Shown here: positions 29,177-33,076 of the stretch, piece by piece
Numbering within the stretch: position 1 is the stretch's first letter
Layout of the letters: each line of letters begins with the position of its first letter
The notes under the pieces: model-generated
What the model was told of the DNA's origin: nothing
Databases searched by the model: none
The model's input: the letters and a program-made list of their open reading frames with translations, nothing else
DNA from: Escherichia phage NHEP11
Sequence record: PQ511149.1
Strand: one strand, 5' to 3'
Length of the DNA stretch: 64,000 bases
Position numbers and translations under genes: made by a program

Positions 29177-29481
29177 TATAATGTTCTCTCAAATTTGTGG
29201 AAGCATTTACGGCATTTCAATTTCAAGTTATCAGTGGTCCAGTTAACCAGTTGGACTTGGATAGTTCCACACTCCGGGCATGGATGTTTTGCTGCCGATT
29301 TGGCAGCATTTTCACGTCGTTCAACCATTTTCATGATTTCGTTCCATGCCGGAGGAACGAACTCTTCTTCACCGTGGATTTTATCTCGCTGAACAAATTC
29401 AATCTTTGAACTATCGTCAATAAACTTAACCAAGCCATGATTAGTGCTCATATCAATATCCTCTAAAAGACGTAGTTTCAT
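29176..29481 (-). CDS. zinc-ribbon protein
   Basis: 101 aa; CPECG...CRKC pair of CxxC motifs. Confidence 0.45.
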   Translation of the reverse strand: MKLRLLEDIDMSTNHGLVKFIDDSSKIEFVQRDKIHGEEEFVPPAWNEIMKMVERRENAAKSAAKHPCPECGTIQVQLVNWTTDNLKLKCRKCFHKFERTL

Positions 29482-30431
29482 TATAACACCTCAATGGCAT
29501 TTCGTAAACCATCAGCTTTTGCATTCAGAGCTTTTAATGATTTAGTTTGTTCTGCAATCTGGGCTTCGACTTCTTTCAGACGAGATTTGAGATATTCGCG
29601 TTCTTCTCTTAAATTATCAACTTTTTCTACTTTAGGTTCTTTAATAGGCTTAGGTTTATACGTATTAGGGTTCTTCAGCTTAATTTGAATACGAGAACTG
29701 AATAACATTGAACCGTTATCTTCGGTTTCGCTGAACATTTCAACAACATCCATAGTCTGTAACATCATACGAAGTTTATAAGACAACGAACGAACGGTTT
29801 TGTTGTGCTTATTAATTTCTTCGGCTTTCATGGTACCGAGATTACGTGAGTAGTAATACGGAACCTGGATATCAATTGACAATGATGCGTTACCATTACC
29901 AGTTGGTTTGAATACTGCAGTAACCCAATCCTTAACATGAACCGTATTTGTACGATCATCGCCGCCTGTGAATAATTTACGTGAATGTTTAAAAAGCATA
30001 TTCACTTGGTTATTGAATTCACAAGCAAATTTATCAGCAAATTTAGTTTCAGGAATGGTAGATAACCAATCAGCTAAATGAGTCTTTTTAACATCGTTAA
30101 TAATAGTAAATTCAACTAAATCAGTTTTAGATGTCACAGATTTAATAAAGCTCGGCTTCATAAAGTTTTTAATGTTATCACGAGCCACAGTAGAAGATAA
30201 CAAACGAGAACGTTTGAACCATTGAAGCAGTGTCCCTAATGAATGAGAATACGCATTCTGAGTATCTTTACAGATATGATTTTCTTGACCTGTATATGTA
30301 CCAAAATCTCGAAGAATACCACTTACTACATCTCGGTGTGGAACATCAAATCCTAGTGCACCAGTAGCGCGCTGAGCATGAACGTTAGCGATAAGACCTG
30401 CAAAATAATCAATGTAATGTGAACGTGTCAT
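29481..30431 (-). CDS. hypothetical protein with C-terminal coiled coil
   Basis: 316-aa ORF. Confidence 0.5.
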   Translation of the reverse strand: MTRSHYIDYFAGLIANVHAQRATGALGFDVPHRDVVSGILRDFGTYTGQENHICKDTQNAYSHSLGTLLQWFKRSRLLSSTVARDNIKNFMKPSFIKSVTSKTDLVEFTIINDVKKTHLADWLSTIPETKFADKFACEFNNQVNMLFKHSRKLFTGGDDRTNTVHVKDWVTAVFKPTGNGNASLSIDIQVPYYYSRNLGTMKAEEINKHNKTVRSLSYKLRMMLQTMDVVEMFSETEDNGSMLFSSRIQIKLKNPNTYKPKPIKEPKVEKVDNLREEREYLKSRLKEVEAQIAEQTKSLKALNAKADGLRNAIEVL

Positions 30432-30493
30432 AATATTTTCCTCTCGTTAAGATAGAAAGATTATACTCCAACCATCCTTGGTTGTAAACTGAT

Positions 30494-31441
30494 TTATGAT
30501 TTTAATGCATTCATTGCGTTAAAAAGTTTAGAGTACTGCAACTGGAGCTTGGTAACTACTTGTTGAGCATCACGAAGCTTAGCTTGTGCTTTGTCAAGTT
30601 CAACGGATAGTTGGTCTACAGTGGCCTTTATTTGATTATAATGGTAATCTTCGGCAGGAAGAAGACCATTAGAGATTTCCAGTTTTGCTTCCGGTAAAGT
30701 ATATACAGACGGTGTGCCGTTAAACATAACAGGTTGTGCTGAAGCTGCATTAATCTTACCGATAATCGGTGTAATAATTGACGCTTCGAACGTTGCATTT
30801 TCCTTTTTAAGATTTTGATAGTATTCAGAGTCTTTGTGCCACCATGGCGCAGGAACCTTTTTACCAATAGATACACGGGCCTGGATAGCGATATGGCCCT
30901 TATTCTTGATAGGGTTGATAATATTAAGCTCACGAGAATAAATTGCTTTAATCTGGTGAATATTATCACCTAACACTTCCAACGCTTGGTGAAATACACG
31001 AGCAACGTTATCATTCTTAGGTTTATACGTAAGAGTGAACTCGTTCTCACTGATAACCATGATTTCTAACTTATCGTAAGTATATTTCAAATGTTTCATG
31101 TTAATTGCTTGAGGACGAATACGAGAAGCAATGGCCATCAGATTGTTAAGGTTATTCCGGAACTGCTTAGCGAAATATTGTCCTTCACCGCCAATACAAA
31201 AATTACGAAGTTTCTGTTTGGCTAATAAACGGCTGAACTCACCATTTTTAATGAACTCTTTAACGGGTGTGTTAGTAACGCATTCAAATTGAGTAAACTT
31301 ACGAGAAGTAATCCCATAATATGAACAGATTTCCTCAATCTCTTCAGGAGTCTTTACAGGCATACGGATAGGATTAGGTCCTGGAGTATATGCGTTCGAG
31401 GTAAATTCTTTGATAAGTTCTCTACGTGTAATAAAAGCCAT
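30494..31441 (-). CDS. hypothetical protein with C-terminal coiled coil
   Basis: 315-aa ORF; promoter-like element upstream. Confidence 0.5.
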   Translation of the reverse strand: MAFITRRELIKEFTSNAYTPGPNPIRMPVKTPEEIEEICSYYGITSRKFTQFECVTNTPVKEFIKNGEFSRLLAKQKLRNFCIGGEGQYFAKQFRNNLNNLMAIASRIRPQAINMKHLKYTYDKLEIMVISENEFTLTYKPKNDNVARVFHQALEVLGDNIHQIKAIYSRELNIINPIKNKGHIAIQARVSIGKKVPAPWWHKDSEYYQNLKKENATFEASIITPIIGKINAASAQPVMFNGTPSVYTLPEAKLEISNGLLPAEDYHYNQIKATVDQLSVELDKAQAKLRDAQQVVTKLQLQYSKLFNAMNALKS

Positions 31442-31496
31442 TTTATATTCCTCATGTTGAAAAATTTATTATACTCCAACCATCCTTGGTTGTACA

Positions 31497-32486
31497 TCAT
31501 TCCTTAAGAAGTTTTACTACTTGAATAAGATTAGCTCGTTCTGTTTTATTTTTACCGTTTAAGCCTGCTAATCGTGAGATTTCATCGTCAGTCTGTTGAA
31601 TAGTTACATTAAGTTCGTTAATCAAAGCTTCAAAGTATTTGATTTGCTCAGCATGTTTTGATTCAAATTTCTGAACCGGAATAACGTTCAGTTCATCAAT
31701 AAGGTCTTTAAGAGAATCTTCTTGGTTGATATCATATTCAACTTCTTTTATTTCTTCAACGAACTCGTCTTTATATCTAACGTCTTTTAGTCCTGGTGTT
31801 GGTCCCGAAATCTCTTCTTTAAGAGTACAAACATATCCAATACGGTATCCAATGCCGTCTCGCTTGATATCAACTTCGTCAATAAATCCACAATGTTTAA
31901 GACCAGAGCCGATTAGGTCAAAATATCCTTGACGTCGTCCTTCAAACGTTACACGAACTACTAAGACAGTTTTACCTGCAACCTTTTGAAGCTCACATTT
32001 ATAAAAGTCTGTTGAACCTGAATAACGTGGATGAGTTTTAAAGTTCATCTGACGATCTAGGCCCATTTGTAAGCGTGCTGATACGGCCATAAAACGTGTT
32101 TGGTTCTCGTTAAGATGAGCAACAATCCATTTCAAAGGCATTTTACACTGTTCACGACCGAACAAATCAGTACGTCCTAGATTACGCAGGATGTTGTTAG
32201 AGTTAATCATCGACAGAACGTTAAGTTTATTCAGCGCGCTGAAGATTCCATCGGCCATTGATTTTCCGTAACCTTTACACGCTTTAATAAGCGCTCGCGG
32301 TAGATTAGTATAGATTTCAGACGGCATATGAAAATCAAATTTACTAGTCAGTAATTGATGAACTTGGATAGCAATTTGTTCATAATTAAGTGCTCTGCGA
32401 TCATTATGGTCTTTAAACCACACTTTAATCTGTGAAGCACATAAACCGTTAATTTCATGTTTTACCGCATCAGATGTAATGCTCAT
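31497..32486 (-). CDS. hypothetical protein with C-terminal coiled coil
   Basis: 329-aa ORF; promoter-like element upstream. Confidence 0.5.
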   Translation of the reverse strand: MSITSDAVKHEINGLCASQIKVWFKDHNDRRALNYEQIAIQVHQLLTSKFDFHMPSEIYTNLPRALIKACKGYGKSMADGIFSALNKLNVLSMINSNNILRNLGRTDLFGREQCKMPLKWIVAHLNENQTRFMAVSARLQMGLDRQMNFKTHPRYSGSTDFYKCELQKVAGKTVLVVRVTFEGRRQGYFDLIGSGLKHCGFIDEVDIKRDGIGYRIGYVCTLKEEISGPTPGLKDVRYKDEFVEEIKEVEYDINQEDSLKDLIDELNVIPVQKFESKHAEQIKYFEALINELNVTIQQTDDEISRLAGLNGKNKTERANLIQVVKLLKE

Positions 32487-32548
32487 ATCTATTTCCTCAG
32501 ATTGAATTGGAACTCAAAACCATTATAACCCGTCCTTGGGTAAAGCGT

Positions 32549-33076
32549 TTATGCGTGAACCGTCTTTAAACGTTCTTCAAATTTCCGAAGAGTACTAATA
32601 CGTTCTGCTTTCTGTTTTGTGTAGTTTGCAATACGTTCTGAAGTGAGAGCGTATCGTTCGTTTACTGATTCTTTCATGAAGTCAGGGATTTCACGAGAAG
32701 CTTTAATTTCATCAAACTTATCGAGTACTGCCTGGTCTTCAGCGATTAAATTTTCGTACATCTCGATATCTTTCTTGATAAACTCAATATCTTCCTGGGT
32801 TACTTTGGATAAACGAGATGCTTTATCCTTTTTGTACTGCTCGTTGGTTTCACGAGACCAGAATAATGTACGTTTTTTGTTAGTGTTTTTGTAGACTTCC
32901 ACAATTCCAACTGAATCGATGATAACAATCCAATTCCAGCGAGATTTGAAAATCTGACCTCCGTCCACGGTAATCTCGTTACCATAAGCAACGTCATTAA
33001 AGAACTTGCTTTGTGCTTCAGATTTAAATTTACCGTCGTTATAATTTACCAGGTTGAAAATATCTTTAGCGTTCAT
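32549..33076 (-). CDS. hypothetical protein with C-terminal coiled coil
   Basis: 175-aa ORF. Confidence 0.5.
   Translation of the reverse strand: MNAKDIFNLVNYNDGKFKSEAQSKFFNDVAYGNEITVDGGQIFKSRWNWIVIIDSVGIVEVYKNTNKKRTLFWSRETNEQYKKDKASRLSKVTQEDIEFIKKDIEMYENLIAEDQAVLDKFDEIKASREIPDFMKESVNERYALTSERIANYTKQKAERISTLRKFEERLKTVHA

Follow-up and report, generated by a model that had tools for sequence, protein, structure and literature searches.

Hyperplastic regions of T4-type phages contain PeSL (promoter-early/stem-loop) cassettes, which were described by Arbiol et al. (2010; PMC2839356) and Comeau et al. (2014; PMC4122927). A PeSL begins at the stop codon of one gene, includes a sigma-70-type promoter that carries a stem-loop, and ends with the Shine–Dalgarno (SD) sequence and start codon of the next. 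PeSLs are regarded as linkers for modular shuffling and for the formation of mini-circles, and copies whose promoter spacing departs from the norm are termed degraded in the same papers. The present analysis concerns a part of Escherichia phage NHEP11 (sequence record PQ511149.1) in which four consecutive open reading frames (ORFs), encoding 316, 315, 329 and 175 amino acids (aa) and here called w316, w315, w329 and w175, are separated by short spacers. The whole stretch of DNA that was analysed, 64,000 nucleotides (nt) in length, is referred to as the window.

The second relevant background is the counter-defence biology of T-even phages. The T4 protein NrdC.5, reported as the product of an 'uncharacterized T4 early gene', counteracts the SIR2 defence Dsr1 and restores plating of a deletion mutant on Dsr1-carrying cells (Srikant et al. 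2022; PMC9391042). Gene 49.2 of T4 and T6, which lies nearby, encodes an inhibitor of the OLD defence (gp49.2). The nrdC.1–6 genes of T4 were lost as a block in a viable, genome-reduced derivative, and are hence dispensable.

The favoured reading of the NHEP11 array, with a probability of about 0.68, is that it encodes dispensable, early, non-enzymatic counter-defence proteins carried by PeSLs in the hyperplastic region of an RB69-like Mosigvirus. Such an architecture belongs to the textbook picture of T-even phages, the genes have known 'hypothetical' orthologs, and their role as counter-defence cargo is probable. A preliminary description made from the sequence alone had proposed an array of four alike, independently promoted early genes as candidates for host takeover, which as first written was not a discovery. 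What is new here is a probable protein superfamily, a subclass of hairpins with an AGGA loop, and a presence/absence series for a NrdC.5-type cassette.

Promoter and stem-loop elements of the array

The nearest relatives of the array segment are Mosigvirus (RB69/JS09-like T-even) genomes, and its DNA identity to many phage genomes is 96–99.8%. From its sequence, the segment is the nrdC.3–nrdC.8 part of the hyperplastic variable region of an RB69-like Mosigvirus. BLAST against T4 pairs w316 with NrdC.3, w315 with NrdC.5, w329 with NrdC.6 and w175 with NrdC.8, and the independently annotated JS09 record has the same order (nrdC.8,.6,.5,.3,.2,.7, nrdC). Comparisons were made across 21 loci, namely the window and 20 related loci; the T4 reference locus (L001) is positions 47000–60000 of NC_000866. 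All four ORFs are under purifying selection, with ratios of non-synonymous to synonymous substitution rates (dN/dS) of 0.03–0.29 against the JS09 and L003 orthologs (w316, 0.07–0.08; w329, 0.10; w175, 0.03–0.12), and the array genes are found in hundreds of phage genomes. Selection and distribution together indicate that the four ORFs are real genes. Their positions and the 55–62 base pair (bp) spacers are as the preliminary description had them.

The four spacers match the published PeSL anatomy, in which a stem-loop that sits between −35 and −10, or overlaps the latter, is followed by an SD sequence and ATG. On this match they are identified as PeSL elements, a kind of element that is already known and not a new observation. 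They are intergenic (gaps of 62, 55 and 62 nt between the four ORFs, and 58 nt upstream of w175), lie between same-strand ORFs of a hyperplastic region, carry a sigma-70-type early promoter, and bound indels between close relatives. The −35 boxes lie 1–7 nt past the upstream stop codon, and the region further upstream is coding sequence. T4 early promoters have the consensus −35 GTTTAC, about 17 nt, and −10 TATAAT, and the PST/T4 PeSL consensus is TTTACW-N17-TAYWAT. The putative promoters of w316, w315 and w175 fit at a spacing of 16–17 nt, within the 16–18 nt of PeSL promoters, although the −35 box of w315 is TGTACA.

A generic sigma-70 scan of 12 kb of this AT-rich DNA showed no enrichment (41 found vs 42.2 expected), and the argument is therefore limited to the T4-specific pattern and to positions. 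The T4-type pattern TTTAC-N17-19-TAWAAT is enriched in the window, where it occurs 8 times against an expected 1.13, a count reached in 0 of 100 shuffles. The T4 GenBank records for the nrdC region contain no promoter features.

The spacer upstream of w329 differs from the other three. Its hexamers, GCTTTACC and TATAAT, have 11 nt between them, outside the PeSL promoter range, and there is no TG extension. The promoter scan made no call in this spacer, and its RNA fold is no better than that of shuffles (z = +0.67). The 11-nt spacing and missing extension suggest that the element is probably not an independent promoter, and that w329 is likely to be co-transcribed with w175. This short PeSL, 3' of nrdC.8, recurs in T4 and in loci L004–L009, with another gene downstream.

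Consequently, the earlier claim that each gene has its own promoter holds for w316, w315 and w175, which have canonical geometry, but not for w329. The inverted repeat said to occur in every spacer is likewise clear in those of w316, w315 and w175, and only weak in that of w329. Early-type expression, also proposed at the outset, agrees with what is known from T4: nrdC.5 has been called an early gene, and the nrdC.8 SD sequence, GGAG, undergoes moderate cleavage in vivo by RegB, which acts on early mRNAs.

The hairpins appear to form a distinct subclass. Their stems are neither of the G-tract/C-tract type of RB49 and phi1 nor of the AGNA...TCNT form reported for PST/T4, but consist of a CAAGGAYG core with an AGGA loop and variable, complementary flanks. 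When the core was searched for in the window and the 20 related loci without any stem requirement, 37 occurrences were found. At least three extra flanking Watson–Crick pairs are present in 25 of these, while the other 12 have 0–1; the 25 well-paired copies are without exception on the gene strand, flanked by a −35-like and a −10-like box. The stems vary but remain complementary (CAACCA/TGGTTG, CATCCA/TGGATG, CCACA/TGTGG, AGCCA/TGGCT, TTATACCA/TGGTATAA and CACCA/TGGTG).

Several further elements of similar kind occur in the window. A same-subclass early-promoter spacer at about 52040–52086 (minus strand) comprises TGTACA, the hairpin CACCA-AGGA-TGGTG and TACTAT, with the core CCAAGGATGG at 52058–52067; it adjoins, on the upstream side, a 75-aa ORF (51792–52019). 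A 20-nt promoter box, TGTTATTATAGACCTATCAA (repeat family D6), is found with 95–100% identity at 33093–33112, 34569–34588 and 34847–34866, where it precedes w175, the NrdC.10 homolog and a 72-aa ORF, respectively. The stretch 34824–34890 has a 67-nt relative at 37217–37283, and these boxes and the 67-nt relative are potential further recombination linkers. At 29480–29508 (minus strand), within the last codons of w316, lies TTTACG-17-TATAAT with an upstream TG, whose −10 box overlaps the start codon (ATG) of the NrdC.2 homolog; it could be an internal promoter or a product of chance. At 30460–30468 and 31468–31476 (minus strand), directly 3' of the hairpin, GGAGUAUAAU(C/A) is similar to the consensus of RegB/S1 targets, GGAGAAUAAAA (PMC1702504). 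Speculatively, read-through transcripts of the upstream gene could be cut just past the hairpin at this RegB-like site. After the NrdC.11 homolog, a GC-rich hairpin, GGGCC-TTCG-GGCCC, followed by a T-run (34907–34933), is the sole canonical intrinsic-terminator-like site near the array.

Gain and loss of the w315 cassette

The w315 gene is a cassette that is naturally present or absent among close Mosigvirus relatives. The two PeSLs that flank it share an identical 27-nt repeat (repeat family D15), at 30460–30486 and 31468–31494. The junction predicted for a genome without w315, with a single PeSL joining the end of w329 to the start of w316, was searched for in 50,697 phage records and is matched in one piece by 21 genomes, 20 of them at 96–98.4% and one at 90.5%. 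These include AV109, F27, p000v and F2. In AV109, the nrdC.6-type gene is directly beside the nrdC.3-type gene, and the spacer between them is an exact hybrid PeSL, with a left half of the w329-to-w315 type and a right half of the w315-to-w316 type. The w315 gene itself is found in only 132 phage records, every one at 79% identity or more.

Indels between relatives with the crossover inside the element, as described for PeSLs, were thus found at this locus. Other junctions tell of similar exchange. The short PeSL on the 3' side of nrdC.8 is common to T4 and the L004-type phages as far as about 10 nt past its −10 box, beyond which the genes that follow differ (nrdC.7 and nrdC.6). In the 21 loci compared, one to four superfamily proteins of about 260–390 aa lie in the nrdC.10–nrdC.2 interval, in varied combinations. 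Since PeSLs are near-identical repeats, homologous recombination between them can delete, insert or swap whole, expression-ready genes. The w315 junction is a clean natural example of PeSL-bounded cassette gain and loss, with the crossover resolved to a 27-nt repeat, and lends support to PeSL shuffling as a model in a third T4-like lineage. In addition, Mosigviruses that carry the NrdC.5-type cassette and those that lack it constitute a natural isogenic series for the study of anti-Dsr1 activity and specificity.

Exchange may have occurred within w315 as well. A mosaic patch at codons ~200–290 (30570–30840) has a dS of 0.5–1.46, against 0.03–0.06 elsewhere in the gene (JS09 and L003 orthologs). 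This suggests an imported segment or intragenic exchange that takes in the linker and the first part of the C-terminal helix.

Probable paralogy and probable counter-defence role of the array proteins

The link to counter-defence is most direct for w315. It matches the Pfam family DUF7235 (PF23882) at 373.5 bits, with a cut-off of 30, over residues 15–314 and profile positions 1–307 of 307; T4 NrdC.5 scores 420.6 bits on the same model. The two proteins are 23% identical over 300 aa (E = 1e-7), and the w315 ortholog is annotated as NrdC.5 in RB69 and JS09. Like T4 NrdC.5, w315 is a full-length DUF7235 protein at the same locus, with an early-type promoter, from a family that is non-essential in T4. 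It is only about 23% identical to T4 NrdC.5, however, and anti-Dsr1 activity is known for the T4 protein alone. By analogy, w315 is the best-supported candidate of the array, as a putative antagonist of a Dsr1-type system. The gene diverges rapidly: a phmmer search of 1.84 billion representative proteins returned only two matches, both close relatives, a word-indexed search returned only relatives of at least 79% identity, and a profile search added three distant proteins.

The remaining proteins have clear orthologs. With BLAST, w316 is 57% identical to T4 NrdC.3 and matches T4 NrdC.4 with E = 7e-5. It belongs to an NrdC.3/NrdC.4 family in which 81 of 81 profile hits carry PF26897, an assignment made via its homologs. 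The w329 protein is 38% identical to T4 NrdC.6 over 127 aa, and about 33% identical to NrdC.6 of other Tequatroviruses over 92% of its length (tblastn). The w175 protein is 84% identical to T4 NrdC.8, and belongs to PHROG 2274, of unknown function.

Three of the four proteins are probably paralogs. Iterative searches with profile hidden Markov models (HMMs) were run on 1172 same-strand ORFs from the 21 loci, after the last 55 residues had been cut from ORFs of at least 200 aa. Seeded with NrdC.3/4, the search converged on exactly six families (NrdC.3/4, NrdC.5, NrdC.6 and three others) and recruited none of the ~1130 other ORFs, the best non-member having an E-value of 0.066. When reversed decoys were added, the search seeded with NrdC.6 ended after its sixth round with members of these six families and not one decoy. 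Control seeds (NrdC.8 and families f260, f150 and f165) showed no drift. Comparison between families with hhalign gave collinear matches at 31–78% probability, and the families have a common C-terminal ending, '[QE]R.KL..A...L[KR]'. It is therefore likely, from sequence profiles, that w316, w315 and w329 belong with NrdC.3/4, NrdC.5 and NrdC.6 to one fast-diverging, Straboviridae-restricted superfamily. The w175 protein was not recruited by these searches; judged by them, it stands outside the superfamily, and NrdC.8 is a separate, conserved early protein.

Each superfamily member probably has a globular N-terminal part that is joined through a variable linker to a C-terminal heptad helix of 40–50 residues. 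In the AlphaFold2 model of w316 (pLDDT 80.3, pTM 0.71), a helical N-terminus and an alpha/beta core are followed by a disordered linker (259–274) and a single 41-residue helix (275–315). The model of w315, built from a 10-sequence alignment, is poor (pLDDT 39) apart from the C-terminal helix, 262–314. By an ad hoc heptad score, w316 (267–307), w315 (263–315) and w329 (279–307) rank above the 95th percentile of shuffles, and w175 does not reach significance (1.42, the 95th percentile being 1.45). The coiled-coil C-termini attributed to all four proteins can accordingly be kept for w316, w315 and w329, with modelled helices in the first two, and not for w175. The 'array of four' alike proteins similarly becomes three probable paralogs and the unrelated NrdC.8.

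No function and no catalytic domain was assigned to the array proteins by Pfam, PHROGs and NCBIfam scans, and no solved relative was found in sequence and profile searches of the PDB, which bears out the statement that they have no recognisable catalytic motif. A Foldseek search of the PDB with the w316 model gave no match at E = 0.001 or better. Among viral models it matched uncharacterised proteins of T4-like phages at 10–15% identity (E = 4e-8 to 9e-5), of 335 and 330 aa in two Acinetobacter phages, 326 aa in a Klebsiella phage and 370 aa in a Serratia phage. Weak hits of the w316 model to LAGLIDADG proteins (I-OnuI), considered because of the order alpha-beta-beta-alpha-beta-beta in its core, were dismissed as noise (E = 0.09–1.3, TM score ~0.1).

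A mechanism can be proposed from these features. Host sigma-70 RNA polymerase would read the T4-type early promoter in each PeSL, so that the genes would be made within the first minutes of infection, and w329 would be expressed by read-through from the promoter upstream of w175. The C-terminal heptad helix of w316, w315 and w329 would most likely drive the predicted oligomerisation. Without an enzyme fold, these three proteins would bind host immune proteins stoichiometrically and inhibit them; the target of w315 would be Dsr1-type SIR2 NADases, as for T4 NrdC.5, and w316 and w329 would hit other defence systems. The roles of w316, w329 and w175 are inferred.

The closest parallels in genome organisation are the anti-defence islands of T-even phages, such as the dmd-tifA-adfA 'anti-TA island' and gp49.2 beside nrdC, which likewise group small, non-essential early genes within variable parts of the genome. 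Counter-defence activity is proven for a member of at least one gene family in the nrdC.3–nrdC.8 cluster. The cluster differs from those islands in that three of its neighbours are seemingly paralogs of one superfamily, whereas the islands hold unrelated inhibitors, and in that functional data exist for one family only (NrdC.5).

A number of observations weigh against a counter-defence array of paralogs carried by PeSLs. The superfamily link is built on weak pairwise signals, and when reversed decoys doubled the database the NrdC.3/4 seed alone narrowly missed inclusion (E = 0.013, threshold 0.01), its best non-members all coming from the six families. A shared fold of the paralogs is unconfirmed because of the poor w315 model. 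No specific defence system is tied to NrdC.3, NrdC.6 or NrdC.8, and the target specificity of w315 may differ from that of T4 NrdC.5, given their low identity. As for the linkers, a covariation count, in which 90.5% of cells were paired compared with 65.5% in shuffles and two-sided changes occurred in 4 of 6 pairs, used seven sequences of which six had been chosen for pairing. In addition, the hairpins are short (5–6 bp) and have no U-tract, and a consensus scan called no intrinsic terminator in the four spacers. The terminator role demonstrated for RB49 PeSLs is consequently unproven here, and may not be applicable to these hairpins.

Alternative explanations must account for the same features. 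Classical host-takeover effectors, as the preliminary description held, would redirect housekeeping machinery such as RNA polymerase, replication, the nucleoid or metabolism. Many T4 early proteins (Alc, Ndd, AsiA and MotB) do bind host machinery, and small to medium, early-promoted, non-enzymatic proteins with predicted oligomerising helices would suit such a role. Takeover is nonetheless unlikely, as the genes can be dispensed with on laboratory hosts, occur in some near-identical phages and not in others, in one to four copies, and diverge very fast, as the two phmmer matches for w315 illustrate, which fits arms-race cargo better. The sole tested family member, moreover, acts on a defence protein. 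Dispensable counter-defence cargo is a better description than 'host takeover', since NrdC.5 neutralises Dsr1, nrdC.1–6 are dispensable in T4, and w315 is present in some relatives and absent from others. Competition between phages, or superinfection exclusion, with paralogs aimed at co-infecting T-evens or mobile elements, has a low probability. Exclusion genes and homing endonucleases are also present in T-even hyperplastic regions, mobD is near this locus in T4, and a Straboviridae-restricted, rapidly diversifying, early-expressed family would fit this explanation; the profile scans, however, gave no membrane or nuclease signature, and the anti-Dsr1 phenotype of T4 NrdC.5 is demonstrated.

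It is very improbable that the ORFs are neutral or selfish cargo, hitch-hiking without a specific function on PeSL cassettes that spread by recombination. The presence/absence polymorphism of w315 and the frameshifted nrdC.6 of T4 itself would be in keeping with this, but all four ORFs show strong purifying selection and the genes are kept across hundreds of genomes. A role as virion or assembly proteins, suggested by the resemblance of the NrdC.3-type alpha/beta core to tail-terminator proteins, has scarcely any probability: no clear sequence or fold homology to a virion protein was found, and tail-terminator homology of w316 was rejected and retained as a mere weak fold resemblance. Clear homology to structural proteins had been named beforehand as the finding that would overturn the host-takeover proposal, and none emerged from the Foldseek searches of the PDB and of viral models with w316.

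Under the favoured counter-defence reading, the probable superfamily ties together four 'hypothetical' genes of T4, of which one is known to act in counter-defence, and makes NrdC.3, NrdC.4 and NrdC.6 candidates for inhibiting other defence systems. A broader and more doubtful proposal is that the superfamily as a whole (w316, w315, w329, T4 NrdC.3–.6 and at least three further families found at this locus in other T4-like phages) might be an unrecognised set of rapidly diversifying early immune antagonists, with a shared scaffold and oligomerising helix, each paralog tuned to a different defence sensor and PeSLs shuffling the paralogs. A weaker extension, from the w316 model, is that the tail-terminator-like alpha/beta core could act as a decoy for sensors of phage structural proteins.

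Coordinates, neighbouring genes and minor observations

The coordinates of the ORFs, PeSLs and hairpins are collected in Table 1.

Table 1. Positions in the window of the four array ORFs and of the PeSL elements and hairpins upstream of them
Feature	Position	Strand	Details
w316	29481–30431	minus	316 aa ORF, NrdC.3 ortholog
PeSL predicted to drive w316	30432–30493	minus	−35 TTTACA 30488–30483, −10 TATAAT 30465–30460; spacing 17; 11/12 match
w316 PeSL hairpin	30484–30469	minus	CAACCA-AGGA-TGGTTG; then GGAG, −10, SD GAGAGG, ATG
w315	30494–31441	minus	315 aa ORF, NrdC.5-type, Pfam DUF7235
PeSL predicted to drive w315	31442–31496	minus	−35 TGTACA 31496–31491 overlapping w329 stop codon, −10 TATAAT 31473–31468; spacing 17
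w315 PeSL hairpin	31492–31477	minus	CAACCA-AGGA-TGGTTG; in minimum free energy and centroid structures; z = −1.83
w329	31497–32486	minus	329 aa ORF, NrdC.6 ortholog
Degenerate short PeSL upstream of w329	32487–32548	minus	TTTACC 32544–32539, TATAAT 32527–32522; 11 nt apart
w329 PeSL hairpin	32541–32528	minus	weak; ACCC-AAGGAC-GGGT
w175	32549–33076	minus	175 aa ORF, NrdC.8 ortholog
PeSL (second type) predicted to drive w175	33077–33134	minus	−35 TTTACA 33131–33126, −10 TATTAT 33109–33104 with TG; spacing 16
w175 PeSL hairpin	33125–33098	minus	GGTCTAT...ATAGACC overlapping −10; SD GGAGG; RNA fold −16.7 kcal/mol, z = −2.5

The array is flanked by genes for NrdC.2, a relocated NrdC.7 homolog, NrdC, NrdC.9, NrdC.10 (AAA-type) and NrdC.11 (nucleotidyltransferase). 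The NrdC.7 homolog (28763–29176, minus strand; 137 aa), a predicted membrane protein, lies between nrdC.2 and nrdC, whereas in T4 nrdC.7 is between nrdC.8 and nrdC.6. NrdC.1 and NrdC.4 are absent from phage NHEP11. The GenBank label 'thioredoxin' on many orthologs of NrdC.2 to NrdC.11 was rejected; they have no Pfam thioredoxin match, and the label seems to be a spill-over from the 'nrdC.x' names.

A frameshift seems to be present close to the 3' end of T4 nrdC.6 (positions 4997–5200 of locus L001, minus strand). As annotated, the frame terminates in ...FLFNNMMMKFSDYLD, while an alternative frame through the 70-nt 'spacer' reads ...QQYDDEIFRLSGLSSKAKSEREKLIKIVDLLKS, like the C-terminal helix module of NrdC.6 in other phages. 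With tblastn, nrdC.6 is matched in two pieces in T4 and in one piece in other Tequatroviruses.

Two minus-strand ORFs of 59 and 65 aa (27251–27430 and 27855–28052) have in common a 55-nt direct repeat of 78% identity. Both encode the basic C-terminal motif RPTKR...R..YR.Y, and a small gene seems to have been duplicated locally.

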